Shown in pieces: positions 1,848-36,697 of a stretch of 39,390 nucleotides of DNA. Where the stretch lies: sequence record MT833387.1. One strand, 5' to 3'. The notes under the pieces are model-generated. The model saw only the letters and a list, made by a program, of their open reading frames with translations. It was not told the DNA's origin and made no database searches. The stretch comes from Escherichia phage HF4s. Positions within the stretch are counted from its first letter, which is position 1; each line of letters starts with the position of its first letter. A program made the translations under genes and the position numbers.

Positions 1848-3973
1848 ATGGCAGAGACATTAGAGAAAAACATGAGCGGATCATGCTCAGGTTTGACCGC
1901 GCCTATTCTCCACAGAAGGAAGTGCGCGAAAAGTGCATTGAAGCTACGAGGTTTGCTCGTGTCCCCGGAGGTCAATGGGAAGGAGCAACGGCGGCTGGAA
2001 CTAAGCTTGATGAGCAGTTAGAGAAGTATCCTAAGTTTGAAATCAATAAGGTAGCAACTGAACTTAACCGCATCATTGCAGAATACCGCAATAACAGAAT
2101 CACTGTTAAGTTTCGTCCTGGTGACAGAGAGGCAAGCGAAGAGTTAGCCAATAAATTAAATGGTCTGTTCCGTGCTGACTACGAAGAAACTGATGGCGGT
2201 GAGGCTTGTGATAATGCATTTGACGACGCTGCTACTGGTGGTTTCGGTTGCTTCCGTTTGACGTCGATGCTGGTCAATGAATACGACCCCATGGACGATC
2301 GTCAGCGTATTGCTATTGAACCAATATACGACCCGTCGCGCTCTGTGTGGTTTGACCCTGACGCTAAGAAGTACGACAAATCTGACGCGTTGTGGGCGTT
2401 CTGCATGTATTCGTTGTCACCTGAAAAATATGAGGCTGAATACGGAAAGAAACCTCCTGCTTCTCTGGATGTAACGTCTATGACCAGTTGGGAATATGAC
2501 TGGTTTGATGAAGATGTTATTTACATAGCGAAGTATTACGAAGTTCGTAAAGAGTCTGTTGACGTCATCAGTTATCGACATCCAATCACTGGAGAGATTG
2601 CAACATACGACAGTGATCAGGTTGAAGATATTGAAGATGAACTGGCAATAGCTGGATTTCATGAAGTGGCAAGGCGCTCAGTGAAGCGCCGTCGTGTGTA
2701 TGTATCCGTAGTGGATGGTGATGGTTTCCTTGAGAAACCTCGACGTATTCCTGGTGAACATATCCCCCTCATCCCGGTTTATGGAAAACGCTGGTTCATT
2801 GATGACATTGAGCGTGTCGAAGGGCACATTGCAAAAGCAATGGATCCACAACGTTTGTACAACCTTCAGGTTTCAATGCTGGCTGATACTGCAGCGCAAG
2901 ACCCCGGTCAGATCCCTATAGTTGGCATGGAGCAAATTCGTGGACTTGAGAAGCACTGGGAGGCTCGCAACAAGAAACGCCCAGCGTTCTTGCCGTTGCG
3001 CGAAGTGAGAGATAAATCTGGCAACATTATCGCTGGAGCTACCCCTGCAGGATATACACAGCCTGCGGTTATGAATCAGGCATTGGCTGCATTACTACAG
3101 CAAACCAGTGCAGATATTCAGGAGGTTACAGGCGGCAGTCAGGCCATGCAGCAGATGCCAAGTAATATTGCTCAGGAAACGGTTAACAACTTGATGAACA
3201 GAGCAGATATGGCTTCGTTTATCTATCTGGACAATATGGCGAAAAGTCTTAAACGCGCTGGTGAAGTATGGCTGTCAATGGCGCGTGAAGTGTACGGTTC
3301 AGAACGTGAAGTGCGCATCGTTAACGAAGATGGAAGTGATGATATCGCTGTCCTGAGCGCACAGGTTGTTGACAGGCAAACAGGGGCTGTTGTTGCGTTA
3401 AATGACCTTTCTGTCGGTCGATACGATGTGACGGTTGATGTTGGACCAAGCTACACAGCACGACGTGATGCAACGGTTTCTGTACTGACAAATGTCCTTA
3501 GCTCTATGCTTCCAACAGACCCAATGCGCCCGGCAATTCAGGGTATTATTCTGGACAATATCGATGGCGAAGGCCTTGATGACTTCAAAGAGTACAACCG
3601 AAACCAACTGCTGATATCTGGTATTGCAAAACCACGCAATGAGAAAGAGAAGCAGATTGTTCAACAGGCGCAAATGGCAGCACAAAGCCAGCCAAATCCT
3701 GAAATGGTTCTCGCTCAGGCGCAAATGGTAGCAGCGCAGGCAGAAGCGCAAAAAGCAACTAACGAAACTGCTCAAACTCAAATCAAAGCATTTACTGCCC
3801 AGCAGGATGCGATGGAGAGTCAGGCAAACACTGTCTATAAACTGGCTCAAGCCAGAAACATCGATGACAAAGCAGTGATGGAGGCAATACGCCTTCTGAA
3901 AGATGTCGCCGAGTCACAACAACAGCAATTCCAGTCACCACCACAGTCACCGGCAGACTTAATGCCGAGTTAA
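1848..3973 (+). CDS. portal protein (P22 gp1 / Sf6 gp3 type), N-terminus disrupted by apparent frameshift
   Basis: Longest intact ORF is 1883..3973 (696 aa), with an N-terminal region aligning to P22 portal. An ATG at 1848 with MAETLEKN lies 3 nt after the terL stop in another frame; restoring one A in the A5 run 1866-1870 gives MAETLEKKHERIMLRFD, co-linear with the P22 portal N-terminus. Confidence 0.85.
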
Positions 3974-13666: not shown

Positions 13667-16042
13667 ATGTCAGATATCACAACAAATGCTGTTGTCGTAA
13701 ACCCACGCCCTATTTTCACCGACTCAAGAACGTTCCGAGCAGTTGCTAATGGTAAAATCTACGTAGGGAAAATAGACACCGACCCAACCATTCCATCAAA
13801 CCAGATCCCGGTCTACCTTGAAAATGAGAATGGTGACAAGGTTCAAATCCCTCAACCACTCATCGTAAATAACGCTGGCAAGATTGTTTACAACGGACAG
13901 TTAGCAAAGGTCGTAACGGTAAACGGTTATAGCATTGCCGTATATGACGCCTACGGTTCTCAAGTTGACTATATCCCAAACGTCCTTGGGTACGATCCAG
14001 ATAGCTTCAAAGACCAATTAGCTGGCCCAGACGGAGCATCGTTAATTGGTTATGGCAATGGAACGGTTGCAGATAAGCTTGATGAGCTTAAGACGCCATT
14101 TGACTTCGGCGCTAAAGGGGATGGAGTAACTGACGACACGCTGGCATTACAAGCATACATTGATGGTGTAGATGGCGACATTGACTTATACGGAAAAACT
14201 TATCTAGTTAGCAAAAACCCAGCACTTGCAACTACCTATCCAACGGAACCTGATTTAGCCAACAATGGATACAACTTCTGCCCGTGTCTCGCTATAGTTA
14301 ATAAAACCAATAAGAGAATCTTTAACGGCACACTCGTCAGCAAGGTATTTGGTCAGTCTGTTCTGTCTATCATCAACAGCACAGGAATAGAAGTTAACCT
14401 TAAAATTGTTGGGTTTGGTAAGTTTCCTGCCATTGACCACCCTAGTGGATATGCGGAAAAAGGATATTCAACTGGGGGCTACAATACGATTGATGGAGGC
14501 CTTCTTCTTGGCCCAAACAATTCAATCCCCACCTCCAGCTATACGCTAGGAAAGTACAATGGGGTATCAGGTCAGTTCCCAATATACGATGCCTCATGTA
14601 ACCCTACAGGTGGATATCAGTCTACTTGGGGTGCATTTGGAGGGGGTTACATTGGTAGCTATGCATGTGCTGTAACTATTCAGCGGGCATGCAAAAATAT
14701 AACACTACGCGGCTGTGAGATATACGGATTCAATGAAGCTGCTGTCGGCATTGGCATAAGATTTATTGTCAGCTCCACTGGATACACCGACTATACAACC
14801 GATGCTGATGTTCCTCGTGGGGTTAACGTCCTGGATTGCTATCTGCATGACTGCTACACAGCAGGAGTGCACGTATGCTCAGGGTACAATATTGTTTATG
14901 ACTCGTTAAGAGTGGAGAACATTGGTCATCCCAATGCAGATGACGCAACAGACACAGACATTAACCCAGGATACGGAGTAACAACATCAAGATTTAGAAA
15001 CATCCGAAACATAACTTGCGTGAATAGTTTCTTCCTAAATTGCAAACGCAAATCTATCGATTTCCATGCAGGCGGGCAATTGATAGTTGATGGAAACTAT
15101 TGCATGAGAACAGGTGTCAATGGCATATATTTTGAGGCGGGATTTGGTTGGGATAATGGATACGAGCCATATAACGTCATTGTTACTAACAATTACATTG
15201 TTACAAGAGCACTAGGCGTGGTTGGCACTGGTGGGATTTCCATGGTAGGAAATGGCTCCGCCCTAGCAGAGTCATACCCGTATCCTTTTTTGAAGTGTAA
15301 CAACAACTATATTGAGGTAAGGGCTGCCAACGGGGTGGGTATTAATAATGGTTACAACAATAACGATTACCACTATGAGGACATAAACATATGTGATAAT
15401 ACGGTTGTATACAAATCTGACACCTACACCCCGGGTCAGTTTGTTGCTATTCGTTGCAACCTAAATACTCCTTCATCTACTACTCTTCCGAAGCAAAACA
15501 TCAAGCTCTGTCGTAACAGCATAAAAATCCTGACAACGCTTGGTAATTACGCATTCGGAACTCCAATAACCATCGGTGGAACTCCTGCTGTTCTTATTGC
15601 AACCGATAATACAGTGGATATGGGGAACGTAGCTAATGGATCAAGTGCATGGTATGCGACAATTACCCCCAACCCAATAACTGACTATTACTTCTCAGGT
15701 AATAAAATACTTAACTACATTAAACCAGCCACTTTAAGACAAGCGGAAGTTATGTTCTATGACAACATAGGATTTACTGCCACAGGAACTTATGTTTCGA
15801 TAGCTATGCAGTGGTTTAGAGGGATATGGACGGTTGATGCAGCTGGTCTCGATTCACTTGCTGGCGCTAAGTCAGTTACCCTTGCATCTGACGGGGTCGG
15901 GATCACTCAGGGAACCCCGATACAACATGGGTCAATATCAGCTGCAATGACAATAAGTTCATCTAATATTGGGTTTACTACCACCGCCGGAACGACATGC
16001 TACGTTGGCGTAAAAATGAAACCTGTTGGTATTAAAGCATAA
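13667..16042 (+). CDS. tailspike protein: P22-type head-binding domain fused to a pectate-lyase-like beta-helix depolymerase domain
   Basis: 791 aa; first ~115 aa closely match the P22 gp9 head-binding domain (NPRPIFT...[16 protein letters not shown]...YDPD); remainder is unrelated to the P22 endorhamnosidase and carries the [13 protein letters not shown] motif of pectate-lyase-fold depolymerases. Confidence 0.9.
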
Positions 16043-16046
16043 ATAT

Positions 16047-16070
16047 GGCGGGGATACCCCCGCCTATTTT
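16047..16070. terminator. bidirectional intrinsic terminator between convergent tailspike and gtrC
   Basis: GGCGGGG-ata-CCCCGCC hairpin flanked by A/T runs on both sides. Confidence 0.6.
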
Positions 16071-17301
16071 ATTTCTGGTATATGTAATCGATACCGTAAT
16101 ATTCTCCAGCAGCTTTAGGGTTATGGAACTTATCAAGGCGATCCCCTAACCTGAAAGTGTTCTTCTCATTATATTTTGGCACTGTAATCACCTTTTCTCC
16201 AGAATGAATGCCTTTCTCTATCATTGCCACTCTGTCCAAGTATTGATTGTTTATATCTATGTAATATGATGACAACATGAAATAATCAACAAGAAATACA
16301 GGCAATAAAGTTAAAAGTAATACTGGCGTATAAAATTTTGAGATTTTCCCCTCAAATGAAGAAATTATCAGCGACAGACTTGCGAGAAGCAAAATAAAAC
16401 CAGTGGTCATAGCCCTTTGCGGATAGTAAGGTGCTGCAAACATAATTACATTCGAGCCGATTGCAAGGGCAAAGAATATAAAGGAGTATTGCATTTTTGT
16501 TTTATCATGCAGCATTGACAATGACGACAAAATAAACATTGATGTCATGATTACGATTATTAGTGCCCCATACTGCACAAGCATTTCAGGCATCCGGTCA
16601 AGCATGTGAAAGTAGATTCTTTCAGTTAAATCTTTTGAATACCATGAACTGAATGAAGGGCCGGAAGCCCTTGCTGCATTCCCAGGTGCCAAAAGCATGG
16701 AGGCAGAACCAACAAGTACAAATGGCAATAGAGCCAAATCTTTTACAGCGAAACGCTTGTTTATGAATGCCAATATACTATGACAAACGATAAATCCCAC
16801 AGAAAGCACCGCCACTGACTCATTCGATGCGCCAGCTAAAAATCCTAACGCAGCTTGTGGTATGGTAAATTTTACACCTTTCATTAAATTATTGCACAAG
16901 AGCATTAGAAGTAATGAAGGTATTAGATAATTAACAAACCCTACAACCCAAAAGGTATTTTGGCCTATGGAAGGGTTAAAAATAAAGAATGAAACCGCTA
17001 TTAAGCAGAATATAGCAGCCCCACCCTGAGCCATTCTCCTAATAACATGCATCAGAAGTATGCTAACTGTCGCGGTAACAGTTGCACTCATCGCATTAGA
17101 TTTAGCAAAAAGGATCATCGGACTAATAAAGTCTACTATGTATCTGCCGCTCCACCCCATATACATTGCAATATGCTTGTCAATGCTAAATCCAAGATTG
17201 CAGAATGCATAATCATCAGATTGCATTGGTGAAAGATAGCTTATTGCCCAAACCATCCCAAAGAAGGCAATATATGCGATAGGGTCTAAATACTTTTTCA
17301 T
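16069..17301 (-). CDS. gtrC: serotype-specific O-antigen glucosyltransferase, GtrC-type polytopic membrane protein
   Basis: 410-aa multi-pass membrane protein immediately downstream of gtrA-gtrB in the same orientation; visibly AT-rich relative to neighbours. Confidence 0.7.
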
Positions 17302-18214
17302 TTTCTTCCCTTCAGCACGTAACGAGGCCTATTCTTAACTTCTACGTAAATCCTGCCAATGTACTCACCGAGCACACCAATTCCTATTAGCTGAATACCG
17401 CCAAGAAAAAGAATAGAAACAAGGAGGGATGGATACCCACGAACCGCATTACCAAAGGCCAGGGTGTCTATAATCATCCACGCGCCGTACATAAACGCAG
17501 CACCGGCAACGAACAGGCCAATATAAGTCCACATGCGCAGTGGGAATGTTGAGAAGCTTGTGATCCCCTCAAGCGCCAGGTTCCATAGCTTCCAGCCGTT
17601 GAATTTGGTGCTTCCAGCCACTCGTTCTGCTCTGGCATACTCCACAACATCGGTACGGCCGCCAACCCAACTCAATACGCCTTTCATGAACAGGTTGCGC
17701 TCAGGCATGAGCTTAATGTTTTCTACCACCTCGCGAGACATTAGCCTGAAATCTCCAACATTTTCCTCGATCTGCGGGTTGCTGATTTTGTTATGCAGCT
17801 TATAGAACCACTCGGCGGTTTTCCTCTTCAGTCTGCCATCAGTTGAGCGGTCAGATCGTTTAGCAAGCACCATGTCAGCACCTGCTAGCCACTTTTCAAT
17901 CAGATGAGGAATGACCTCAATCGGGTCTTGCAGGTCAACATCAATAGGAATAACGGCATCACCTGTTGCATGGTCTAACCCTGCAAACAATGCTGGTTCT
18001 TTACCAAAGTTTCGTGTAAATGACAGCGGAACAACTAGAGGATCTGAAACGGACAGAGCGTTAATGATTGACTCCGTAGCGTCTTTGCTACCATCATTTA
18101 TAAAAACAATTTCCACTTCATATGGCTTCAACTCTTCGAATTCACGTACCGTTTTATAAAAATAGGTATCGCTTCCTCTTCGTTGAAGACAGGAACGACC
18201 AGAGATATCTTCAT
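17298..18214 (-). pseudogene. gtrB: bactoprenol glucosyltransferase GtrB, frameshifted after codon ~19
   Basis: ATG overlapping the gtrA stop encodes the canonical [19 protein letters not shown] and then terminates; the rest of GtrB ([10 protein letters not shown]...) continues in another frame; break at the T5 run (plus-strand A5, 18158-18162). Confidence 0.85.
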
Positions 18215-18573
18215 TTCGCATCCCTAAAGACAATGAACTTTGAATAGACGAAACCGCACACTAGGCTGATGGCGGAGAAGGTGACAAGAGTGACAATTGG
18301 AGGAAGTGCACATTTATCGGCAGCCCATCCAACAGTAGCACTCAGTGTTCCCATGAATCCTACATATAACATGTAGCGCATCGTTGTAGTCGAAGCTTTG
18401 AATGTGAATTTTGCATTCGCGAAGAAGCTAAAGCTCACAGCCACAACGAAACCTGCGAAGTTTGCAAGAGCCTGATTGGTGTGCGCGGCATAGATACATA
18501 CACCAAAAACCACCCAATGTATAAGTGTGTTCAGCACACCAATCGAGGTGTACTTTGCAAATAGCTTTAACAT
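18211..18573 (-). CDS. gtrA: GtrA flippase-like small membrane protein
   Basis: 120-aa hydrophobic protein with stop overlapping the gtrB start (ATGA); typical gtrA size and arrangement. Confidence 0.85.
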
Positions 18574-18706: not shown

Positions 18707-19900
18707 TCACTCCACCTTTTCATCAAGCCAGTCCGCCCACCACTGCATCATTTCTCTGCGCTTATCGAGATACTGAGCATGGTTGTAAATCCCACGCACA
18801 GATCCGCCGTTGGCATGTGCCAGTTGCACTTCAATAGCATCAGCAGGCCATTCGTGCTCGTTCATAATCGTGCTGAATTCATGCCTGAATCCGTGACCGC
18901 TTTCCAGACCCTCATAGCCGATTTGTTTGATCACAAGCAGTACCGCGTTCTCGCAGATTGGCTTCTTCTTATCGTTGCGCCCGGCAAAAACAAACTCTGA
19001 TACTGGTTTGGTGATTGAGCTTAGCGTAGTGAGAAGTTCAACCACCTGGTCTGACATAGGAACCACATGAATTTTGCGTCCTTTCATCACACTGGCGTCG
19101 ATGGTGATAATCCTGTTTTCAAAATCGACGTTCTTCCATAGCATGGAACGAAGCTCTTTCGTTCTTAGGGCTGTGTAGCGTAAAACTTTGGTCGCAATGA
19201 GCGATACGATACTTCCTGAAAATGTTGCCAGTGCTTTGTTGAATGCAGGGATCTGGTCTGCAGGAAGAAACGGGAAGTTCTTCTTGCGGTATCCCTTCAT
19301 GGCGTCAGCAAGGTCAGGTGCCGGGTTATATTTAGCCCTACCAGTGACAATAGCGTAACGGAAAACCTCGCCGCATCTTCTGCGGGCTTTGTTGGCTCGC
19401 TCCATTGCACCGCGATCTTCAAATCTGCGGATTACTTCCAACAGTTGCATCGGCTCAATATCCTGAATCTCAAGACCGCCGATGATGGGTAAAATGTCGT
19501 CATCAAACATTTTGGCAAGTTCAGTTGCATAGCCTACTGACCAGACTTGCTTCTTGTGCTCGTACCATTCCTTGTAAATCGCACTAAAGGAATTGTTGTT
19601 AGACGAAGCCTTTTTCGCCTTTACCGGATCGATGCCAACCGAGATGTCTTTCCTCGCAGTCCATGCTTTATCCCTTGCCTCTTGCAAAGTCATAAGCGGA
19701 TATTTTCCGACGGTCAGGATTTTCTCCTTACCGTCAATCTTGTAGCGAAGCTGCCATACCTTTTTCCCGGATACAGGGACATAAAGGTACAGGCCATTAC
19801 CATCGAGAAGGCGGTATGGTTTTTCTTTCGGCCTTGCTGCTTCAATCTGCTTAACGGTGAGCATGGGTAAAAATCCGGTGGGTAAAATTATTTTATCCAC
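18707..19900 (-). CDS. int: tyrosine integrase, P4-type (IntS-like)
   Basis: 397 aa with GTG start; N-terminal arm-binding-type domain and C-terminal catalytic domain with conserved R...H..R...Y region; attP-like sequence immediately upstream. Confidence 0.9.
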   Translation of the reverse strand: MDKIILPTGFLPMLTVKQIEAARPKEKPYRLLDGNGLYLYVPVSGKKVWQLRYKIDGKEKILTVGKYPLMTLQEARDKAWTARKDISVGIDPVKAKKASSNNNSFSAIYKEWYEHKKQVWSVGYATELAKMFDDDILPIIGGLEIQDIEPMQLLEVIRRFEDRGAMERANKARRRCGEVFRYAIVTGRAKYNPAPDLADAMKGYRKKNFPFLPADQIPAFNKALATFSGSIVSLIATKVLRYTALRTKELRSMLWKNVDFENRIITIDASVMKGRKIHVVPMSDQVVELLTTLSSITKPVSEFVFAGRNDKKKPICENAVLLVIKQIGYEGLESGHGFRHEFSTIMNEHEWPADAIEVQLAHANGGSVRGIYNHAQYLDKRREMMQWWADWLDEKVE

Positions 19901-20025
19901 TTTTTACCCGTCATGGAGTGCGGCTGTCAACGATCTGACGCGAACCATTACGAACTGTTAATCTACGGAAGGCTTGATATTCAGGGGATTTTGCGGACTG
20001 GTACGGATGGGAGCGAACTGATAAA

Positions 20026-20040
20026 TGGTGTCCCCTGCAG
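20026..20040. other. candidate attP core (reverse complement of the 3' end of an argW-type tRNA-Arg gene)
   Basis: TGGTGTCCCCTGCAG matches the complement of the tRNA acceptor 3' end, in the 213-bp gap between xis and int, as expected for P4-type integrases. Confidence 0.5.
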
Positions 20041-20113
20041 ACATCTACTTGAAGCGGCAGGGGATTGATTGGAATGGTGTTTTTTAGGTGTGAGAAATAT
20101 TTTACCCGCTATT

Positions 20114-20314
20114 TTACCCATTGGCGCGGCTTAAGAGCTTATTTTTGAATTCACAATGGTCACGATATAACCATCTTGCGCGTCCGTGGATAACTTTGGC
20201 TTTTGGCAGGTCGCCGGACTTAATCCGGTCATAGATGAAGGTTTTACCGAAGCCAGTATCGGCCATGATGAATTTCAAATCAACCAGGGAATCAGGCTGT
20301 AGTTCGTGTTGCAT
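20114..20314 (-). CDS. xis: excisionase / AlpA-family DNA-binding protein
   Basis: 66 aa with AlpA-like helix-turn-helix (IMADTGFGKTFIYDRIKSGDLP...GRARWLYRD); directly upstream of int. Confidence 0.7.
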   Translation of the reverse strand: MQHELQPDSLVDLKFIMADTGFGKTFIYDRIKSGDLPKAKVIHGRARWLYRDHCEFKNKLLSRANG

Positions 20315-20371
20315 GAGTGCTATCTCCGAATAGGGAATCGAACCTGCAAATCAGGCAATAAAAAACCGCCA

Positions 20372-20539
20372 TCAGGCGTTTTTGTGTTCTTTCAGTTCTT
20401 CAATTCGAATATTGGTTACGTCTGCATGTGCTATCTGCGCCCATATCATCCAGTGGTTATAGCAGTCGTTGATGTCCTCTGCTTCGATAACTCTGTTGAA
20501 TGGCTCTCCATTCCATTCACCTGTGACTCGGAAGTGCAT
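20372..20539 (-). CDS. small hypothetical protein (55 aa)
   Basis: ATG-initiated ORF below the track size cutoff (MHFRVTGEWNGEPFNRVIEAEDINDCYNHWMIWAQ...). Confidence 0.45.
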   Translation of the reverse strand: MHFRVTGEWNGEPFNRVIEAEDINDCYNHWMIWAQIAHADVTNIRIEELKEHKNA

Positions 20540-20610
20540 TTATCATCTCCATAAAACAAAACTCGCCGTAGCGAGTTCAGATAAAAGAAATCCCCGCGAG
20601 TGCGAGGATG

Positions 20611-20895
20611 TTATTCATTGCCGATATTCACCTTTATCGCGAACACCTTTACCGGTTTATCACCGAAGTGCGGATGTGTGATTGTCTTGATTTCATAGCC
20701 GCCATACGGAACGTCAATTCTGCGGCTGGAATCGTCACGCTTCGGATATCCCTTTGTGATAATCAGGCGGTCATACTCCCGGAACATAATTCGCTTATTC
20801 CAATAGTCATTACACAGGCGATACTCTTCCGTTTTCTCTCCTCGAATCATGGCATCGAAGTATTCACCTTTGACGGCAAGTTGTAGGTTAGCCAC
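20611..20895 (-). CDS. hypothetical ea-region protein
   Basis: 94-aa ORF, 8-nt overlap with the upstream gene. Confidence 0.5.
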   Translation of the reverse strand: MANLQLAVKGEYFDAMIRGEKTEEYRLCNDYWNKRIMFREYDRLIITKGYPKRDDSSRRIDVPYGGYEIKTITHPHFGDKPVKVFAIKVNIGNE

Positions 20896-21172
20896 GACCT
20901 TCCTCCTTTGGCTTGTGAATTTGTATCGTCATGCCGCTTTGAGTGGTGACTACAATGACAGAACCAGGCTGAAGGCTGTTAAGATTGAATGCTTCGTAAA
21001 ACGAATCCAAGGCCAGCGCTTTTTTATTCTTTCGGTTCCACCAACGCCATCCCTTGCTACAGGCTACACTGACAATCCACTGTCCACTCCTGTAAGCCAT
21101 ATAAAACCAGATGAGCAAAACCTGAAGGAAGGCTATCCAGTCAATAATCGTATATTTCGCGAAGGAGTCCAT
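20888..21172 (-). CDS. hypothetical single-pass membrane protein
   Basis: Internal ATG at 21172 preceded by GGAGGT RBS; one predicted TM helix (IIDWIAFLQVLLIWFYMAY). Confidence 0.5.
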   Translation of the reverse strand: MDSFAKYTIIDWIAFLQVLLIWFYMAYRSGQWIVSVACSKGWRWWNRKNKKALALDSFYEAFNLNSLQPGSVIVVTTQSGMTIQIHKPKEEGRG

Positions 21173-21379
21173 CACTTCACCTCCTGCGCCGTTTTGATGA
21201 TTGCTGCCAGACAATTCTTGCAAGGAACAAGCAGCGTTCCCTGCTCAATGCTCAATAGCGCATGCTGAGCATCCTGAAAAGCCATTCGAATGACCCTGGC
21301 CGATGACCGCACCATGTCTCAATCTCGTGCTTAGGGAGTTTAACTCCCTCTCGATAGTCATATTTGATGATGTGCTTTC

Positions 21380-21571
21380 TCACGACTTCACCTCCTGTTG
21401 AGCAGAAACCTGATTTTTGAGTGATTCAGAAATATTCCTGCAATACCTAGCGGATTCATCGTCGAAAATGCTTTCGAAATACTCAGCAATCCAGCCGAAC
21501 ACAACAACCTGCTCATTGCTTGGATTTGCACTTTGATTGAAGGCGGTTATTAGTGATGCACTCATACTCAC
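21380..21571 (-). CDS. hypothetical protein
   Basis: 63-aa ORF translationally coupled to the upstream gene. Confidence 0.4.
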   Translation of the reverse strand: MSMSASLITAFNQSANPSNEQVVVFGWIAEYFESIFDDESARYCRNISESLKNQVSAQQEVKS

Positions 21572-22389
21572 TTAACCTCCTGCGGCGGTTCAGGTAGTGG
21601 CATCCAGTGGGTTACATTGCTAATCAGACCATATTCATTAGTTTGAGGATGGTTGCCGCTATCATCTCCATATTTAAGACTCTCCATAAAACCATAATGC
21701 TTATTCCCATTAACTCTCACAAAACCGTAATAAGCTGGTATAACGCCGATCTCACACGTAACCAGTAAAGGAACACTAGTTCTCCAATTTATCTCGCCAA
21801 TTACAGGCATTCGCTCACTACAGCTTATCCAACCATCCGGAGTTACCGGATAGTTGCCAGCCAGTCTACGCAAAACAGCCTTAACAGCTTCAATACGGTC
21901 ATCATCAACTTTTTCTACAATATTGGAATTTAAATACTTCGAAGCGTTGCTATGCCAATCGCTGGTTTTAGGGTCTTGTCCATCCATCAAACGCCAAGCT
22001 TCAGCGATTAACTCATAGCCAGTGACAGTGGCTTCCTGCGCATCACCAATCAGTTGTGTGATCTCTCTTTCAAGCATGCTTAGAGGGTTAGGCATTGGTT
22101 TTTCTTCCGGTACTACTGGCGCTGGAGGGGCGGCGTAAATGCCCTCTATCACTAAATGTTTGCGCTCAAAATCATCTGGCTCTCGATGATATACGTAACT
22201 CCAATCACCAAGGTTATCATTGCGCCTGAAACGGAAACCTATCGGCTCTGCTTCCAGCGATGCCAGTGCGATACGCAGGGCAGCCAGGATATTCCCCTGG
22301 TAATCATCAAGCCCGAAAGGAAGCTCATCACGAACGCTTTCATAATCGTTGATAGCCTGCTGCAGCCATTCTCTTGTGATAGTGCTCAT
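21568..22389 (-). CDS. DUF551-type lambdoid prophage protein
   Basis: 273 aa; C-terminal W..PLPEPP region typical of DUF551 ea-region proteins. Confidence 0.6.
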   Translation of the reverse strand: MSTITREWLQQAINDYESVRDELPFGLDDYQGNILAALRIALASLEAEPIGFRFRRNDNLGDWSYVYHREPDDFERKHLVIEGIYAAPPAPVVPEEKPMPNPLSMLEREITQLIGDAQEATVTGYELIAEAWRLMDGQDPKTSDWHSNASKYLNSNIVEKVDDDRIEAVKAVLRRLAGNYPVTPDGWISCSERMPVIGEINWRTSVPLLVTCEIGVIPAYYGFVRVNGNKHYGFMESLKYGDDSGNHPQTNEYGLISNVTHWMPLPEPPQEVK

Positions 22390-23006
22390 GATGCCTCTCC
22401 TTTAACTGCTTCGGTGACGTTTATTCCAGCGTTGTGCAGTGCCTCAAGAACCTGATGCTGCCTGTAAACCATTTCAGTGTGGTAAGGCTCGTCAAAATCG
22501 ACGCGATGCAACATGCTATAGCATTGCGGAAGCACAACCTCCCGCAACTCCAGCTCAGCAATGCGCTTCTCTGCGGCTTCCAGCTTCTCGCGCATATCGT
22601 CAACGTACTCGACCAGAGATCCGCCAGCAGGAATTTCGCACTCCTCGACCAGTTGGAAGTAGATATCAGCTGCGGCCCGTGTGTTGCTATGCCTAGCGTC
22701 GCCCATCTCACCTTCACGAAGAGCATCGCGTTCGGCGGTAAGATTGGCTATTTTGCTGTCTTTGCCTTCCAGCTCAACTCGCAGCTTCCCTACCGTTAGC
22801 GCAATATCCTCGTTCTCCTGGTCGCGGTGTTTGATGTATTGCTGGTTTCTTTCCCGTTCATCCAGCAGGGCCAGCACAATGTGTGGCGTTATCAGGGACT
22901 CAAATTCGGCAACAGCTTGCTCGCCTCGCTTGTAATTCTTAATCCCACCTAAATCTTTCGCGTTCTGCGCCGCCTCACGCAGTGCCTGATAGTCAATCTT
23001 GCTCAC
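22386..23006 (-). CDS. Ea22/Ead-like coiled-coil protein
   Basis: GTG start at 23006 preceded by AAGGAGG, overlapping the Lar stop; coiled-coil rich. Confidence 0.55.
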   Translation of the reverse strand: MSKIDYQALREAAQNAKDLGGIKNYKRGEQAVAEFESLITPHIVLALLDERERNQQYIKHRDQENEDIALTVGKLRVELEGKDSKIANLTAERDALREGEMGDARHSNTRAAADIYFQLVEECEIPAGGSLVEYVDDMREKLEAAEKRIAELELREVVLPQCYSMLHRVDFDEPYHTEMVYRQHQVLEALHNAGINVTEAVKGEAS

Positions 23007-23226
23007 TGTTCGCCTCCTTTGCTCGCTGATTCCACTCTGCTCTAACCTCTGAATAAAAAATCGCGCAGTCATTTCCAGGCGCTGCATATTTGCTACCAGA
23101 TTGAGCGCGACACGTACCGCATCGAACGAAATAGAATCGACCGCCAGAGCCATATTCAGGGTGATCTGCTTCGCTGGCAACGTGCGCTGCACCGCCACAG
23201 AATGGACATGGTAGTAGGTTGCTCAT
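22993..23226 (-). CDS. Lar-family restriction alleviation protein
   Basis: [13 protein letters not shown]-terminus and second Cys pair (CGTC) characteristic of the Lar family. Confidence 0.65.
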   Translation of the reverse strand: MSNLLPCPFCGGAAHVASEADHPEYGSGGRFYFVRCGTCRAQSGSKYAAPGNDCAIFYSEVRAEWNQRAKEANSEQD

Positions 23227-23783
23227 GAATGCACTCCCTTGTGAAGCTGTTCCGCACAATGCAGCAGGGCGTCAGTCGCCTCTTTCACCGTAACGCAGTC
23301 GCCATCGTCCAGCCCGGACACCGACGCGTGCTTAACGAACGCCGCGCAAAGGTCATCAAACGCCTTAGCCCGGACTTCAGCCAGGAAAGCATCGGTGGCT
23401 GGGGTGTCAACACGGATGCTGTCGCGCAAGATGAAAAATGCATTGAGCATTCCAGTCTCTGGCACTTCATCCTGATGCTTCTCATACGCATCAAGAGCCT
23501 TCATCATCTCATGTCCGAATGGTTGAGGGTGCGCAGCCTTCAGCCCAGCATTCTCCGCCGCCAGCACTGAAAACTTCTCGTGTGCCAACTTAACAGCCGA
23601 ATCAGCCTGCTTAATTGACTCAATCGCTCTCTGTTGGTCTTCGGACAGAGCCGAAATCTTGGCCTCCGCTTCAGCAAATTTACGCACCAGATATTCAGCG
23701 TTTGTTTCGTTAACCTTTAAATCTCGTGGAATGCATTTACCTTTCAGAAATCCATCCATCTCAATTAGTGACATTTGTTTCAT
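23223..23783 (-). CDS. hypothetical ea-region protein
   Basis: 186-aa ORF coupled to flanking genes (ATGA overlaps). Confidence 0.5.
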
Positions 23784-23944
23784 TTCTTCCCACTCCGCAA
23801 CATCGCATTCAGATATTTGTTGTCATTAACAGAACCGAAACTCTTTCTCTTAAGCAATTCCTCTCTCGATGGCATTGGCTTTACGCGTTGGCGAATAATC
23901 ATTTCTGCCGGAAGAATGCCGGGATTGTATGCAAGTCCTCTCAT
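23780..23944 (-). CDS. small hypothetical protein
   Basis: Probable start at internal ATG 23944 with GAGGAA RBS, 8 nt after the upstream stop. Confidence 0.4.
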
Positions 23945-23954
23945 GGTAAATTCC

Positions 23955-24248
23955 TCAGTCATTACTGATAGCGCCATAGCGTGAGCGGTAATTACGCAGG
24001 CGCGGGTCAATTTCAGGGAAGTGGGTATATGTGGCTTTGCGGAATGGTCGGATTGATGTCTGGTAAATTCGCTCGCGTTCTTCTTTCTCTGCAAGCCATA
24101 TACAATGGCGAAATTCCTTTTCCTCTTTCGTTTCCTGCGGTAGCGACATTATCCGATCGTAGTTTTTTCTGAATTTATCCAGCACCTCCGATACGGAATT
24201 GCCGGAACAGCGGCGCGCGTCATCCGCACCATACAGAGGCGCTGGCAT
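23955..24248 (-). CDS. hypothetical protein (Abc-position, possible anti-RecBCD)
   Basis: 97-aa ORF downstream of the erf-ssb pair; function inferred from position only. Confidence 0.4.
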
Positions 24249-24271
24249 AATGGAATCCTTATTTTGCTAAT

Positions 24272-24654
24272 TTAGAAGGGAATTGAATCGTCGTATTCAG
24301 GATGATTTTGATGATTGCTACTTTGTTGCTGTTGGCTGTTTCCTGAAGTTGCAAATCCAATCTTTGCATTCAGTAATTCAAGAGTGATTGATTGACCATT
24401 TTGCCCCTGATAAACATCAACCCTGATGTTTTCTCCGGTAATTTCCACAATGCCACCTTCAACAAGAACACTACGGTAGTAATCCGCTTGCGCTCCTGGC
24501 TTGGCAAATACAACGGCGCTGTAGTTTGTCCATTCTTTCTTTTTGTCTGGCGATCGTAATACTGAACGCCAGCACGGATGTTGAATCCGATATTTTCCCC
24601 GGCCTGAAACTCTCTTGCGGGCTTGTTTAGTCTTACAGTAATCGAATGTGCCAT
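24272..24654 (-). pseudogene. ssb: single-stranded DNA-binding protein, frameshifted
   Basis: N-terminal ~40 codons in one frame; the other frame continues as an OB-fold-like sequence ending in the SSB acidic tail (EYDDSIPF-stop); break at the A5 run (plus-strand T5, 24540-24544). Confidence 0.75.
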
Positions 24655-25259
24655 TAAGCAGCCGCTCCTTCTAATTCGTCTCGTCTGATGTTGTAAACGC
24701 CCTGCGCTTTGTGCTGCTCCGGTGTGCCTTCGAGCATCTTCCACGCTTTGGCGAACGCCTGTTTAAGCTCTTCCACGGTGTTTTTCTGCAATGCTGCGTC
24801 AGTGAATGCTTTTAGAACCTGTTCAGGTGTAGGTGATGGTTTTGACTGCTTTGCTGCTGCGTTCTGCTGATGTTTATGCTCGTCTGTATCTGCATCTTTC
24901 GCATCATCAATGCCGAACAAACCATTGAGGCAATATTTGCGTGCATAAGAGCTTGTAGCTCCCGTAACTTGTGCAGAATCCATTCCTTTCTTGCTTTCTT
25001 CCTCTCGTGCAAGAGCGGTTGCCGTATGACTGTTTTCGCCATCGGTAATAGTTGCCGTGGCTTTCACGTAATACCGATCACCAATCAACACAACTTCATC
25101 GCTGATTGATAAAAACAGACCATTCAGTAACGGCTTAACGCCTTCAAGAATATCTTCGCAGCTTCTGTATTTATATTTACCGAATGAGTTGTACTGATTC
25201 TTTGGCGCGTTCAGATTCTCCTGAATAGCTGCCAGTCTTGCGTAAAATTCTTTGCTCAT
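24654..25259 (-). CDS. erf: Erf single-strand annealing recombinase
   Basis: N-terminal ~120 aa closely match P22 Erf (MSKEFYARLA.IQE.LNAPKNQYNSFGKYKYRSCEDILEGVKPLL...). Confidence 0.9.
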   Translation of the reverse strand: MSKEFYARLAAIQENLNAPKNQYNSFGKYKYRSCEDILEGVKPLLNGLFLSISDEVVLIGDRYYVKATATITDGENSHTATALAREEESKKGMDSAQVTGATSSYARKYCLNGLFGIDDAKDADTDEHKHQQNAAAKQSKPSPTPEQVLKAFTDAALQKNTVEELKQAFAKAWKMLEGTPEQHKAQGVYNIRRDELEGAAA

Positions 25260-25348
25260 ATGATTGTTCTCAGAATGGACATGGCCCAAGGAAATAACGC
25301 TGATTTAATACTTCAGTCTTTGCCGCATTTAAAAATACGCGAACACCT

Positions 25349-25534
25349 TCACGATCTCCCTTCTGGCGATACATTAACGCCTGCTGCGTGTACATGCGTC
25401 TCTGTAACTTGCTCTCCTTCACTGTGGTTGCAAGTGACATGAATATCTCCTTCGTTACCGATTAATTCTTTCATCTGACGAATGAATTCTTCGTCTGACC
25501 AGTTATCTGTAAAACTCATTTCCTGCGATACCAC
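25349..25534 (-). CDS. hypothetical small protein (arf position)
   Basis: 61-aa acidic ORF between kil and erf. Confidence 0.4.
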   Translation of the reverse strand: MVSQEMSFTDNWSDEEFIRQMKELIGNEGDIHVTCNHSEGEQVTETHVHAAGVNVSPEGRS

Positions 25535-25665
25535 GGAAGGTTGATAGCTGATTTCATCGCTTTATTTGCTTCAAGCCACATTTTGGAATCACCAATAAAT
25601 CGGGCTATTACTGCTTTGTTCTGTGCTGCACGAAGCATCTGGTGATTGATAGCTATTTCATTGCG
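25513..25665 (-). CDS. kil: Kil-like host-killing protein
   Basis: 50-aa ORF directly after cIII containing IARFIGDSKM, similar to the lambda Kil core (IATFIGDEKM). Confidence 0.6.
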
Positions 25666-25784
25666 CATAATAAGACCTCAACTCTTTTCCATCCGTCACG
25701 TAATTTACGGGTGATTCGTTCAAGTAAAGATTCATTTAGTTGGAAGGCACCCATGCGAGCGCCTCCCGCGATTGCGTAAATCAT
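25650..25784 (-). CDS. cIII: CIII-like protease inhibitor
   Basis: 44-aa ORF containing ESLLERITRKLRDGWKR, identical to the lambda CIII central helix. Confidence 0.8.
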
Positions 25785-25808
25785 GGGTGGTTCCTTATGT
25801 TGGTTTTA

Positions 25809-26777
25809 TTAGTAGGTTATTTTTGTTGCGAATACTTCGCCTTTTACGATGGCTGTTATGATATTTTTAGCAACATCTTCTGATGCGCCAACCTTGATAA
25901 GGTCAGCAAGTATTTTGTTATTTACTTCTTTCCGGTGAGCTTTATCCTTTGCTCTACGCTCTTCTTCGTCCTTGATTCTTTTTTCTTCTGCTATTCTGGC
26001 TTGCTCTTTTGCTTCAGCCTCGCGACGGATTCGTTCAGCCTCCTCCTGTGCTTTTCTGCGCTCTGCTTCAATTGCTGCCTGCTTTTCTCTTTCAGCTCGT
26101 TCTGCTGCCTCTTTTGCTTCGCGCTGTGCTCGTTGCTCGGCTTCAATGCGTTCACGCTCTGCACGTTCCGCTGCGGCCTTAGCTTCTGCTTCTCGCCTTG
26201 CTGCTGCTTCAATTTCGGCTTTTGCCTTTGCTTCGGCTTCTGCTCTGGCTTTCTCTTCAGCTTCTCTTTTTAATCGTTCTTCATGCTCTCGCTTTTCCTG
26301 CTCCGCTTTGAGTCTTGCCTCTTCTCTTTGGCGGTCAAATTCGCGATCCATCAAAATAGCTATTTCATGGTCAGACTCAATTTGCTTTGCGAGAGCTTCA
26401 GCTGCTGCCTTAGCTTCTTCTTCGGCTTTAATCCGCGCCTGTTCTTCCTCATAATCAGTAAGAGGCTGGCGCGCCTTGGCTTTCAGCTCATCAAGGCGAT
26501 CACGCACTGTCTTGCGGTTGGCATCAATTAGCTTTGGAATTTCCTTCAGTTCAGCAACAAGGTCTTTGCCAAGACCATCGAGATATGTTTTCGTCTGCGC
26601 AACTTTATACGCCAGAGAAGCGATCTCCTTTCTGCCCTTTGCCGTTGTGATATCAGGCACAAAGGACATAACTTCACGTTCAACCTTTTGAAGGATTTCT
26701 TCAATCTGGTCGGCAGACTGAAATACAGTCATTGCATTTGCTTTTTCAATAACAACTAAATCTGTTACTTCACTCAT
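25809..26777 (-). CDS. hypothetical protein with long charged coiled-coil (E/A/K/R repeat) region
   Basis: Start assigned to ATG 26777 (GGAGG RBS) downstream of the terminator; ~150 aa of EAKA/ERAER low-complexity repeats. Confidence 0.7.
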   Translation of the reverse strand: MSEVTDLVVIEKANAMTVFQSADQIEEILQKVEREVMSFVPDITTAKGRKEIASLAYKVAQTKTYLDGLGKDLVAELKEIPKLIDANRKTVRDRLDELKAKARQPLTDYEEEQARIKAEEEAKAAAEALAKQIESDHEIAILMDREFDRQREEARLKAEQEKREHEERLKREAEEKARAEAEAKAKAEIEAAARREAEAKAAAERAERERIEAEQRAQREAKEAAERAEREKQAAIEAERRKAQEEAERIRREAEAKEQARIAEEKRIKDEEERRAKDKAHRKEVNNKILADLIKVGASEDVAKNIITAIVKGEVFATKITY

Positions 26778-26789
26778 ATATCCTCCATC

Positions 26790-26818
26790 AAAAAAATTGC
26801 CCTCACATCGGAGGGCAA
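26790..26818 (-). terminator. intrinsic terminator (tL1-like)
   Basis: Minus-strand TTGCCCTC-cgatgt-GAGGGCAA hairpin followed by a T7 run. Confidence 0.7.
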
Positions 26819-26965
26819 AGAAGATTTCCAATAATCAGAACAAGTCGGCTCCTGTTTAGTTACGAGCGACATTGCTCCGTGTATTCACTCGTTGGAATGA
26901 ATACACAGTGCTATGTTTATTCTGTTGTTTATGCCAAAAATAAAGGACGGTTATGCGGCCTGAAA

Positions 26966-27415
26966 TTACTTAACCAATGATGCTGCATATTCGATAAGGT
27001 AAAGTTTTGGGGCCAGCCAAATTTTTAACCAAGTCATATTGGTTACTACACCAATAATAAAAATCCCCCACAGAGTCAAAACTCCAACCAATGGCATGAT
27101 AAGAAGGTTAATATCTCCTTTGCTATCCCAAACCATTGTCGGACTGTATTTGGTATTTCCCCTCTCCCATGAGTATCCTTCATCACCGATTTTACCTGTC
27201 TCAACTCTTTGGCACTGCTTCTTCATAAACCAGAAAACCAGTGGGATTGTTAGAATGGCTATTAATGTTTTAATCAGACTGTCAACCATATTCCATAGCA
27301 GCAACTGATGAACAACATCAGGAATCTGCGCTTGGCTGAATGAAACAGCCGCGTCTATTCCATTACTGGCTTTTTGCAGTAGTTCTACGAGAATCTTGTT
27401 TGCTTGTTCTTCCAT
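26966..27415 (-). CDS. membrane protein in SieB position (candidate superinfection exclusion protein)
   Basis: 149 aa, two strongly hydrophobic helices; first gene after N in the PL operon. Confidence 0.6.
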   Translation of the reverse strand: MEEQANKILVELLQKASNGIDAAVSFSQAQIPDVVHQLLLWNMVDSLIKTLIAILTIPLVFWFMKKQCQRVETGKIGDEGYSWERGNTKYSPTMVWDSKGDINLLIMPLVGVLTLWGIFIIGVVTNMTWLKIWLAPKLYLIEYAASLVK

Positions 27416-27423
27416 ATCTCACC

Positions 27424-27729
27424 TCAATCGTAATAAGCTGGAATTGATTTTCCGCGTTGCTTCTGGCGGCCTGAACAGGTCACACCCATTTCACTGCGTG
27501 GCTTGCGGTAGTAAATACGGTTCTGTTTAAGCTCGACTTCTTCTGCCTTCTTGCAGCGAAGGCTTCCGAGTGATGCTGCTTTATCTGCTCTGACGCAACC
27601 AGAGAGCTTTAGCGCAATTTTTCGCGCCAGTCGCTGCTCTTGCATTGCCTGTTCACGTTGAGCCTGTCTGCGTGCTCTGCGGCGATTTCTGGCGTTATCG
27701 TCAGCCAGATATGTAATGACTACTGTCAT
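27424..27729 (-). CDS. N: antitermination protein N
   Basis: 101 aa; arginine-rich motif near the N-terminus (NARNRRRARRQAQ); C-terminus (GVTCSGRQKQRGKSIP) matches lambda N. Confidence 0.85.
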   Translation of the reverse strand: MTVVITYLADDNARNRRRARRQAQREQAMQEQRLARKIALKLSGCVRADKAASLGSLRCKKAEEVELKQNRIYYRKPRSEMGVTCSGRQKQRGKSIPAYYD

Positions 27730-27836
27730 GTTGACCTCCGATGATTGACTTTGGCGGTGACGCGCCGGGTGCTTATCTTCCGGTTGCCGTCGTGCAGCTG
27801 CACTTCACGTCACCCCAAAGCCAACTACTCTTTGGT

Positions 27837-27878
27837 TCCCGCATTTCGGCGGGACAATCCCATCAATGTTAAAGAGCC
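27837..27878 (-). promoter_or_regulatory. nutL (boxA plus boxB)
   Basis: Minus-strand GGCTCTTTAACA (rrn-like boxA) followed ~12 nt later by the TCCCGC-CGAAAT-GCGGGA hairpin, identical to the nutR boxB. Confidence 0.7.
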
Positions 27879-27925
27879 TGCCAATCTGTTCCGTTTGGCT
27901 ACCAGCGTCCTGCTGATGGCTAAAG

Positions 27926-28010
27926 AATACTGTAGGTATTTTATTGTGTAAATACCCAAGGTATTTATTTTTGGTGAAATAATGATAAGCAAATGAATAC
28001 AAAGGATATT
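27926..28010. promoter_or_regulatory. OL operator region / PL promoter
   Basis: Three 15-bp sites of the form AATAC-N5-GTATT (AATACTGTAGGTATT, AATACCCAAGGTATT, AATACAAAGGATATT), same consensus as the OR sites. Confidence 0.65.
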
Positions 28011-28096
28011 TATTTTTTCGGTGTCTGCTTGTTCAGTGCTTTTTATGCGGGATATGTGAAGTGGATCCCGATAGCTATTGCTGCCGGGATTATGGG

Positions 28097-28464
28097 TTAG
28101 TCAGCGAAGGTTAAGACGAGAATTACCTTAATGATGTCTGCTACAACAGACACGGCCATAGATAAACCAAAGACAATCCAAGCCATAGAGATGTCTTCAC
28201 TACCATCGTATAGGGTTCCGTAATCACTGGTGTAAGGCGTAAATGTCGCGCCTTGATACAATAGGTATAAGCTTGATCCATAGAGGATAAATGCAGATAT
28301 CCCTTGTATTGCTATGATCACTAGAATCATGAAACGAGCTGATCTATGCGCCCAAGCCTGGCTTATTTTTCTGATAGAGATTTCGCAATAAAAGCATGCG
28401 CTAAGCCGTAAATTGTCGAGATTGCCAACATCCCAAAAAAGCTTGCTATAGCGGTTCCAACCAT
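28097..28464 (-). CDS. small multi-pass membrane protein in the rexAB position, split by apparent frameshift
   Basis: 33-aa hydrophobic ORF (AAGGGG RBS, 17 nt after the cI stop) and 77-aa two-TM ORF (28097..28330) are separated by an A5 run; adding one A fuses them into one ~122-aa protein with 3-4 predicted TM helices. Confidence 0.6.
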
Positions 28465-28481
28465 AATCGCCCCTTGCGTGA

Positions 28482-29198
28482 TCAAACCAGCCTCAGTTTT
28501 GTCTCAATTGCAACGCCTATAATCTTGCAGTTTCCATTGATTGGCACGAGAGGCCATGCAGGATTAAGTCCCTTGAGGTATTTATTTCCGCCGTCGATTA
28601 TCAGCTTCTTGAATGTTGCTTCGTTAGAGTCAGAAAGTTTTGCTATGACCAAGCTGCCGTTGATCGCCTCCCTTCCGGTATCGAAAAGAACGAATGTTCC
28701 CTCTGGAATGCTTAACCCAACCGGTGCCGTCATTGAATCACCTTCCACTTTAAGCCAGAACGCATTACCTTGAATATGCGCGTCAGACTCAAGCCAAACA
28801 TCTATGTCTTTAATGGTGTATGGTTCGCATGCTTCACACCACGAGCCAGCCTGGATACTGCTTAACACCGGATACCTCTTTCCTGCTCTGTATTCCCCTG
28901 CATACCTTACGTTGGCATCGCTCTTAAGGCTTTCTGCCTGTTCTGCAACCTTGGCAGCAATTGACTGGCTAAAATCAGCAATTGAGACTTGCAACAGTCG
29001 TGCAAAACCAGATGCAACCTCAACGTTTAGCGCGTTTCTGCCATTAAGATAATGCCCTACCGCTCCTTGGGTGATACCCAGTTCATCAGCGATTGAGTAT
29101 TGGGTTATTCCCAATTCTTTCTTTTTTGACTCATACAAAGCCTTAAGCCGCTTAGCGTCTTCCAGCTGTTCTGTCGTCAGTGATTTTTTATTTTCCAT
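28482..29198 (-). CDS. cI: CI-type repressor (HTH plus LexA-like S24 autoprotease domain)
   Basis: 238 aa; aligns along its length with lambda CI, including the Ala-Gly cleavage region and Ser/Lys dyad context. Confidence 0.92.
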   Translation of the reverse strand: MENKKSLTTEQLEDAKRLKALYESKKKELGITQYSIADELGITQGAVGHYLNGRNALNVEVASGFARLLQVSIADFSQSIAAKVAEQAESLKSDANVRYAGEYRAGKRYPVLSSIQAGSWCEACEPYTIKDIDVWLESDAHIQGNAFWLKVEGDSMTAPVGLSIPEGTFVLFDTGREAINGSLVIAKLSDSNEATFKKLIIDGGNKYLKGLNPAWPLVPINGNCKIIGVAIETKLRLV

Positions 29199-32841: not shown

Positions 32842-33262
32842 AATTCGATCCCCAGCACATCAGCAAAACGCTATTCACGCAGTACAGCAAATTCTTCCAG
32901 ACCCAACCAAGCCAATCGTAGTGATCATTCAGGAGCGCAACCGCAGCTTAGACCAGAACAGGAAGCTATGGGCCTGCTTAGGTGACGTCTCTCGTCAGGT
33001 TGAATGGCATGGTCGCTGGCTGGATGCAGAAAGCTGGAAGTGTGTGTTTACCGCAGCATTAAAGCAGCAGGACGTTGTTCCTAACCTTGCCGGGAATGGC
33101 TTTGTGGTAATAGGCCAGTCAACCAGCAGGATGCGTGTAAGCGAATTTGCGGAGCTATTAGAGCTTATACAGGCATTCGGTACAGAGCGTGGCGTTAAGT
33201 GGTCAGACGAAGCTCGACTGGCTCTCGAATGGAAAGCGCGATGGGGAGATCGGGCAGCATGA
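32822..33262 (+). CDS. ninB: NinB recombination protein
   Basis: 146 aa, near-identical to lambda NinB. Confidence 0.92.
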   Translation: MKKLTFEIRSPAHQQNAIHAVQQILPDPTKPIVVIIQERNRSLDQNRKLWACLGDVSRQVEWHGRWLDAESWKCVFTAALKQQDVVPNLAGNGFVVIGQSTSRMRVSEFAELLELIQAFGTERGVKWSDEARLALEWKARWGDRAA

Positions 33263-33786
33263 CTATCAAATCAAATACGCCAGCACACGACAAGGACTGC
33301 TGGCAAACGCCGCTTTGGCTTTTTGATGCACTGGATATTGAGTTTGGATTCTGGCTGGATTCGGCAGCGAGCGACAAAAATGCTCTGTGTGCTCACTGGC
33401 TAACTGAGGCCGACGACGCGCTAAATTCTGAGTGGATAAGCCACGGTGCAATCTGGAATAACCCACCGTACAGCAATATCAGGCCGTGGGTGGAAAAAGC
33501 CGCTGAGCAGTGCATACAACAGCGACAGACGGTAGTTATGCTTGTGCCAGAGGATATGTCAGTCGGATGGTTCAGCAAGGCTCTGGAGAGTGTCGACGAA
33601 GTTCGCATTATCACTGATGGACGGATTAATTTTATCGAACCATCGACAGGGCTGGAGAAGAAGGGAAACAGCAAAGGCTCCATGCTGCTGATTTGGCGAC
33701 CGTTCATCAGTCCTCGACGGATGTTTACTACCGTATCCAAAGCGGCATTGATGGCGATCGGGCAGGGCGTCAGGAGGGCGGCATGA
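33259..33786 (+). CDS. phage DNA N6-adenine methyltransferase (Dam-type)
   Basis: ~175 aa with NPPY catalytic motif (IWNNPPYS); start overlaps the ninB stop. Confidence 0.75.
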
Positions 33787-36541: not shown

Positions 36542-36616
36542 GGGTCAGTCGTATAAAGGTCATTACGGAAGGCTGTTAACCTTCTTATCGTGGTTCGAGT
36601 CCACGCTGTCCCGCCA
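36542..36616 (+). tRNA. tRNA-Asn (anticodon GUU), phage-encoded
   Basis: Cloverleaf by hand: acceptor GGGTCAG/CTGTCCC (one mismatch), anticodon stem GAAGG/CCTTC with loop CTGTTAA, T-arm CGTGG-TTCGAGT-CCACG, encoded CCA. Confidence 0.55.
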
Positions 36617-36621
36617 AATAT

Positions 36622-36697
36622 GCTGGTTTAGCTCCAATGGTAGAGCAGTCGCCTTGTAAGCGAATGGGTAGCGGTTCAAGTCCGTTAACCAGCACCA
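36622..36697 (+). tRNA. tRNA-Thr (anticodon UGU), phage-encoded
   Basis: Perfect 7-bp acceptor GCTGGTT/AACCAGC, D-arm GCTC-CAATGGTA-GAGC, anticodon loop CTTGTAA, T-arm AGCGG-TTCAAGT-CCGTT, encoded CCA. Confidence 0.6.

Follow-up and report, generated by a model that had tools for sequence, protein, structure and literature searches.

A divergent Lar-family gene in the leftward early operon of the P22-like Escherichia phage HF4s: a predicted zinc ribbon with a tentative role in restriction alleviation

Lar of the Rac prophage, also named RalR (E. coli K-12 b1348, 64 aa), is the founder of the protein family described by PF14354 and TIGR03655 and its sole characterised member. Its role is disputed. 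As cited in later work (PMC10286901, PMC6158711, PMC11482910), King & Murray (1995) reported that Rac Lar alleviates restriction by EcoKI and enhances modification. Guo et al. [quoted passage not shown] Since the host used in that study, BW25113, carries hsdR514 and EcoKI is mentioned nowhere in its text (PMC4041452), the restriction alleviation claimed in 1995 and the DNase toxin claimed in 2014 were never tested against each other. RefSeq names Rac RalR after the toxin description.

[quoted passage not shown] A Lar-like gene of phage Bas63 was found to be conditionally important in hosts without intact type I systems, and the authors of this preprint suggest a type IV target (PMC11482910). 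In addition, a Lar-like domain appended to the DnaE1 polymerase has been described (PMC3919608). A literature search for experimental work on the Lar subfamily studied here found none.

The stretch of DNA analysed in this work (record MT833387.1; 39,390 nucleotides, hereafter called the window) is an almost complete genome of a P22-like (Lederbergvirus-type) temperate phage. Its nearest relatives are CUS-3, IME10, HK544 and Sf6, each of which covers less than 50% of the query. The leftward early genes are arranged in the order N ... cIII, kil, erf (PF04404), abc2 (PF11043), DUF2737, an hkaH-like gene (186 aa), the Lar gene, ead/Ea22, DUF551, DUF4752, xis and int. The Lar gene is thus located between abc2/erf and xis/int and beside Ead/Ea22, in agreement with the original prediction, which had placed it in the ea region. 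A scan of positions 20000-28500 yielded two σ70 promoter-like sites compared to 11.7 ± 3.3 expected from shuffled sequences, and none of them was found near the Lar gene on either strand. Given this depletion, transcription from P_L is the natural inference; the Lar gene has no promoter of its own and lies inside the leftward early operon.

Other parts of the phage genome are described here for completeness. Genes for tRNA-Asn (gtt) and tRNA-Thr (tgt) are found at 36542-36697 on the plus strand, between the gene for the Q antiterminator and the lysis genes. Beside the integrase gene, an O-antigen modification cassette (16069-18573, minus strand) codes for a GtrA-like flippase (PF04138), a family-2 glycosyltransferase (GtrB-like) and a DUF6056 membrane protein which is probably the serotype-specific GtrC; the cassette is a lysogenic-conversion module. 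The tailspike gene (13667-16042, plus strand) encodes a P22 head-binding domain; a match to the N-terminal extension of endosialidase was weak and stayed under the threshold. Overall, no phage is closer to the window than CUS-3, which is K1-specific.

The Lar gene occupies positions 22993..23226, exactly the interval originally predicted; its strand, which had been left unstated, is the minus strand, with the ATG start codon at 23226-23224 and the TGA stop codon at 22995-22993. Its translation has all the features first ascribed to it, namely a length of 77 aa, the Lar-signature N-terminus and a second cysteine pair. A CPFCGG motif is located near the N-terminus, the second pair is formed by C36 and C39 (C36-x2-C39), and C54 is a fifth cysteine. 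A Shine-Dalgarno sequence, GGGAG, was read from the sequence at 23234..23238 (minus strand), 7 nt 5' of the ATG. The start codon overlaps the stop codon of the upstream gene in an ATGA tetranucleotide (23223..23226, minus strand), and the same 4-nt overlap is present in eight of eight prophage contexts. This upstream hkaH-like gene (23223..23783, minus strand) encodes a 186-aa protein that is not assigned to any Pfam family. On the other side, the Lar gene overlaps an Ead/Ea22-like gene (22386..23006, minus strand; PF13935, 71.8 bits), whose AGGAGG Shine-Dalgarno sequence (23018-23013) and GTG start codon at 23006 are situated within the last codons of the Lar open reading frame. The last nine Lar codons are the ead Shine-Dalgarno and start region read in another frame, and the C-terminal tail of the protein is not conserved. 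Overlaps of start and stop signals thus appear to couple the gene to its neighbours on either side, with probable translational coupling at the ATGA. An alternative TTG start at 23259, which would give 88 aa, was rejected, as it falls within the upstream gene, homologues are conserved from MSNLL onwards, and PGAP takes the ATG.

The Lar family assignment, the core of the original prediction, was borne out by profile searches. Residues 3-69 of the protein match model positions 2-58 of the 58 positions of PF14354 (Lar_restr_allev) with 38.5 bits, compared to a gathering cutoff of 28.6 bits, and PHROG 599 ('Lar-like restriction alleviation protein') is matched at 8e-13. The stricter NCBIfam model TIGR03655 (anti_R_Lar) scores 29.4 bits (E 7.1e-7), which is under its cutoff of 39.6 bits. 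In BLASTP, the protein shares 26% identity with Rac RalR/Lar of K-12 over 42 residues (E 7e-5), and Rac Lar scores 12.6 bits against a profile of the window subfamily. When the close homologues were aligned with the Rac RalR/Lar clade by hhalign, the match extended over 57 columns and took in CPFCG, CxxC and the helix with WNxR (97% probability, E 1.1e-10). Two 9-residue insertions distinguish the window subfamily from RalR in this alignment, the second of which carries Cys54. Both the two cysteine pairs (CPFCG ... CxxC) and the C-terminal W-N-x-R are present in the window protein, and the same motifs occur in RalR. The phages retrieved by tblastn with RalR as query did not overlap with those retrieved by the window protein. 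The window protein therefore truly belongs to the Lar superfamily, though as a divergent member. Neither the gene nor its family label is new: 'Lar family restriction alleviation protein' is the name that the RefSeq pipeline PGAP attaches to the identical protein in 47 complete E. coli genomes, and the same name is given by PHROG-based phage annotation.

An AlphaFold2 model with a mean pLDDT of 81.5 predicts strands at residues 14-20, 30-36 and 42-48, followed by a C-terminal helix (55-75) which includes the W-N-x-R motif. This arrangement agrees with a zinc ribbon to which a helix is appended, and zinc would be bound by four cysteines. Among the predicted viral structures in BFVD, the best Foldseek matches were phage proteins labelled as Lar (E 7.5e-5, TM-score up to 0.81). 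A Foldseek search of the PDB returned nothing significant (best E 0.39), and the only match in a profile search against PDB sequences was a non-significant one to MsrB. The top PDB matches were small zinc-bearing beta folds such as the thalidomide-binding domain of cereblon and Mis18/Yippee; they had TM-scores of about 0.3 and were discarded.

An exhaustive profile search identified 1739 cluster representatives at E≤1e-3, 169 of which were found at E≤1e-10. In an alignment of the best 150 of these 1739 representatives, C7, C10, C36, C39 and W65 are invariant, and P8, F9, G11, C54, R62, N66 and R68 are nearly so; Cys54 is conserved in 145 of the 150. All of these best 150 representatives match both PF14354 and PHROG 599. 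The relatives are mostly longer than the window protein, with a median length of 127 aa in a set of 162 homologues. Within the best 150 of 1739, the domain starts in the first 15 residues in 141 cases and is followed by more than 30 further C-terminal residues in 119, while only 23 proteins have a length of 90 aa or less. Scans of these 150 representatives showed that the C-terminal extensions are diverse and nearly all without a Pfam or PHROG assignment, apart from DUF551 in two. Such fused architectures would suit a general-purpose small binding module. In the window, a 273-aa protein of the ea region (21568-22389, minus strand), whose gene is the second one downstream from the Lar gene, has DUF551 as its C-terminal domain; in two distant relatives (P0026 and P0064), DUF551 is fused directly to a Lar-like N-terminal domain. 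This double occurrence hints at a functional link between the DUF551 and Lar-like modules.

Comparison of carriers revealed that the Lar gene is part of a recurrent mosaic unit of about 22975..23409 (minus strand), which is 86-99% identical among carriers while its flanks differ. Besides the Lar gene, the unit includes the final ~60 codons of the hkaH-like gene upstream, and these two parts always occur together. The length of the upstream protein varies among carriers (158, 186, 205 or 224 aa), whereas the ATGA junction is constant. At its 3' boundary, the unit ends in the conserved ribosome-binding and start sequence of ead. HK620 has kept only the junction pieces corresponding to 22975-23022 and 23368-23409; its hkaH gene abuts ead, and there is no Lar gene in between. 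The Lar gene is hence an optional mosaic module that is absent from some close relatives such as HK620. In the records of HK106 and several Salmonella phages the Lar region is labelled 'hypothetical'. In phage ST104 (NC_005841.1), neither the GenBank nor the RefSeq record contains a Lar gene at 2849-3082, and the start of the ead-like orf8 has been extended across this region in another frame; the omission is probably an annotation error.

What the Lar gene does for the phage is best explained by a role like that proposed in 1995 for Rac Lar, i.e. alleviation of type IA restriction-modification of the EcoKI kind by an early gene of the P_L operon. We hold this explanation tentatively and consider its chance of being correct somewhat short of even. 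It is drawn from the homology to Rac Lar together with an operon slot which is the same as that of lar in Rac. According to this scheme, the gene would be expressed from P_L under N antitermination, at an early stage following infection or induction. Its product, in analogy to Rac Lar, would act as a small protein-binding factor and shift the host type IA restriction-modification complex towards methylation of unmodified phage DNA, whereby restriction of the phage and of its recombination products would be alleviated. The zinc ribbon would serve as a scaffold, and the surface loops and the helix would provide the interaction surface. Several findings count against such a role: the identity of 26% to Rac Lar and the sub-cutoff TIGR03655 score; the two insertions and Cys54; the disjoint phage sets in tblastn; the occurrence of the domain as N-terminal module of longer proteins in 119 of the 150 best representatives; the disputed function of the founder; and the Bas63 phenotype in hosts that lack intact type I systems.

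Any function presupposes a functional gene, and the idea that the open reading frame is a chance or decaying product of the mosaic junction is scarcely credible. Its last nine codons being simply the ead Shine-Dalgarno and start sequence in another frame, and the missing call in the original ST104 annotation, are what speaks for it. Against it, the gene has its own Shine-Dalgarno sequence and the ATGA coupling; compared with the window, five alleles found in E. coli prophages and in P22-like phages of Salmonella together show nine synonymous and only two non-synonymous codon changes; 479 contigs list the identical protein, which is also indexed in 573 blocks of a public assembly collection; cysteines and a tryptophan are invariant in the 150 proteins aligned from a family of 1739 representatives; and the structure prediction is confident. 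These results effectively refute a non-functional gene already, and the Lar open reading frame is a genuine protein-coding gene. It is also very unlikely that the protein is a toxin of the RalR type, i.e. a non-specific DNase harmful to the host, be it within a type I toxin-antitoxin system or as a nuclease for host takeover. RalR is the closest characterised homologue by hhalign, and it was reported as a non-specific endonuclease neutralised by RalA (PMC4041452). Yet the Rfam model of the RalA sRNA (RF02694), which recovers the K-12 gene with 225 bits as positive control, detected no RalA in the window at the gathering threshold, nor at E≤10 in 19900-25500. The hallmark of RalR/RalA, an antisense stretch of about 16 nt that is complementary to the coding region of the toxin, was not found here either: inverted repeats of at least 12 nt able to supply antisense pairing are absent from 21500-24300. 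Further arguments against a toxin are the lack of an antisense promoter-like site near the Lar gene, the low identity to RalR (26%), fold searches of PDB and BFVD that returned no similarity to any nuclease, and the position of the gene in a coupled operon rather than in a stand-alone cassette. The toxin-antitoxin architecture of RalR/RalA is not conserved in the window.

A stronger competitor, which we regard as a substantial minority possibility, sees in the protein a general zinc-ribbon adaptor directed at another target in early phage development, with no effect on type I restriction-modification. It might, for example, counter another defence of the host (type IV restriction is one candidate) or have a role on DNA together with the coupled hkaH-like and Ead/Ea22 proteins. 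This would be consistent with the fusion of the domain, in 119 of the 150 best representatives, to diverse extensions, most of which have no family assignment and two of which contain DUF551, as well as with its fusion to the DnaE1 polymerase (PMC3919608). Cys54 and the two insertions, subfamily features missing from RalR, the invariable presence of the upstream gene's 3' end beside the Lar gene, and the phenotype of the Bas63 Lar-like gene in hosts that lack intact systems of type I (PMC11482910) point in the same direction. On the other hand, no result obtained here indicates an alternative target, and Lar-type restriction alleviation, favoured by homology to Rac Lar and by the matching slot in the operon, is still the single most specific hypothesis.

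The competing idea can be sharpened to the proposal, rather doubtful in our judgement, that the CPFCG ... C54 ... WNxR subfamily forms a distinct class of small early-phage effectors that act on another host target and are not type I modulators. Their targets could be type IV or other defence systems, as hinted for Bas63, or they could have a role with the overlapping hkaH-like and Ead/Ea22 proteins. If this were true, the label 'restriction alleviation' would be a misnomer across the subfamily (1739 representatives at E≤1e-3). Caution is warranted in any case: the label goes back to one experiment from 1995, performed with a protein of 26% identity which was later re-described as a DNase toxin, and the gene should therefore not be counted as an established anti-restriction function in the counter-defence repertoire of the phage. 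The original prediction had combined the Lar gene with a Dam methyltransferase of the nin region into two candidate anti-restriction functions. An open reading frame for a Dam DNA N6-adenine methyltransferase is indeed present in the nin region (33199..33786, plus strand; PF05869, 217.5 bits compared to a cutoff of 28.1), physically unlinked to the Lar gene. The two genes may therefore be kept as candidates, but the pair does not amount to a finding. With an allele as widespread as this one (479 contigs, 573 blocks), functional data would calibrate the annotation of a large family.

The known system closest to that of the window is Rac Lar, which is likewise a small CPFCG ... CxxC ... W-N-x-R protein. 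Both genes belong to the leftward early operon of an E. coli lambdoid phage, in which they lie between recombination genes and xis/int, the order being recE-recT-ralR-rcbA-xisR-intR in Rac and erf-abc2-...-Lar-...-xis-int in the window. The two proteins differ in sequence (26% identity over 42 residues, two 9-residue insertions, a fifth conserved cysteine and a TIGR03655 score under the cutoff), and unlike Rac RalR the window gene overlaps both of its neighbours and has no RalA sRNA partner. Lambda Ral (66 aa) resembles the window protein as a small, cysteine-containing early protein of the P_L operon. Its gene occupies a different slot just downstream of N, and Ral is not among the top 50 BFVD fold matches of the window protein. 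No similarity between the two proteins was detectable (E 6.1 in blastp; 4.7 bits for Ral against the subfamily profile), and the window contains no homologue of lambda Ral (best tblastn match E 0.87).

EaG of P22 and HK620 (59 aa) is another tiny cysteine-rich protein encoded in the ea region, with a PF14354 score of 23.1 bits, under the cutoff of 28.6. Its slot, beside DUF551 and xis, is different from that of the Lar gene, and no EaG counterpart is present in the window. Weak PF14354 matches of the EaG type were seen in hkaD/EaG of HK620 (locus L005, 1352-1531) and in two E. coli prophage loci (L009, 8960-9139; L011, 8262-8441), so that, judging from sequence, a second Lar-like zinc ribbon may be encoded in the ea region of some P22-like phages. 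The relatives within PHROG 599 and PF14354, such as those of Vibrio phages and metagenomic entries named 'restriction alleviation protein', share the fold and motifs of the window protein, to which the Vibrio phage proteins are 48-50% identical. They usually possess a C-terminal extension, whereas the window protein represents the minority, free-standing form of the domain.
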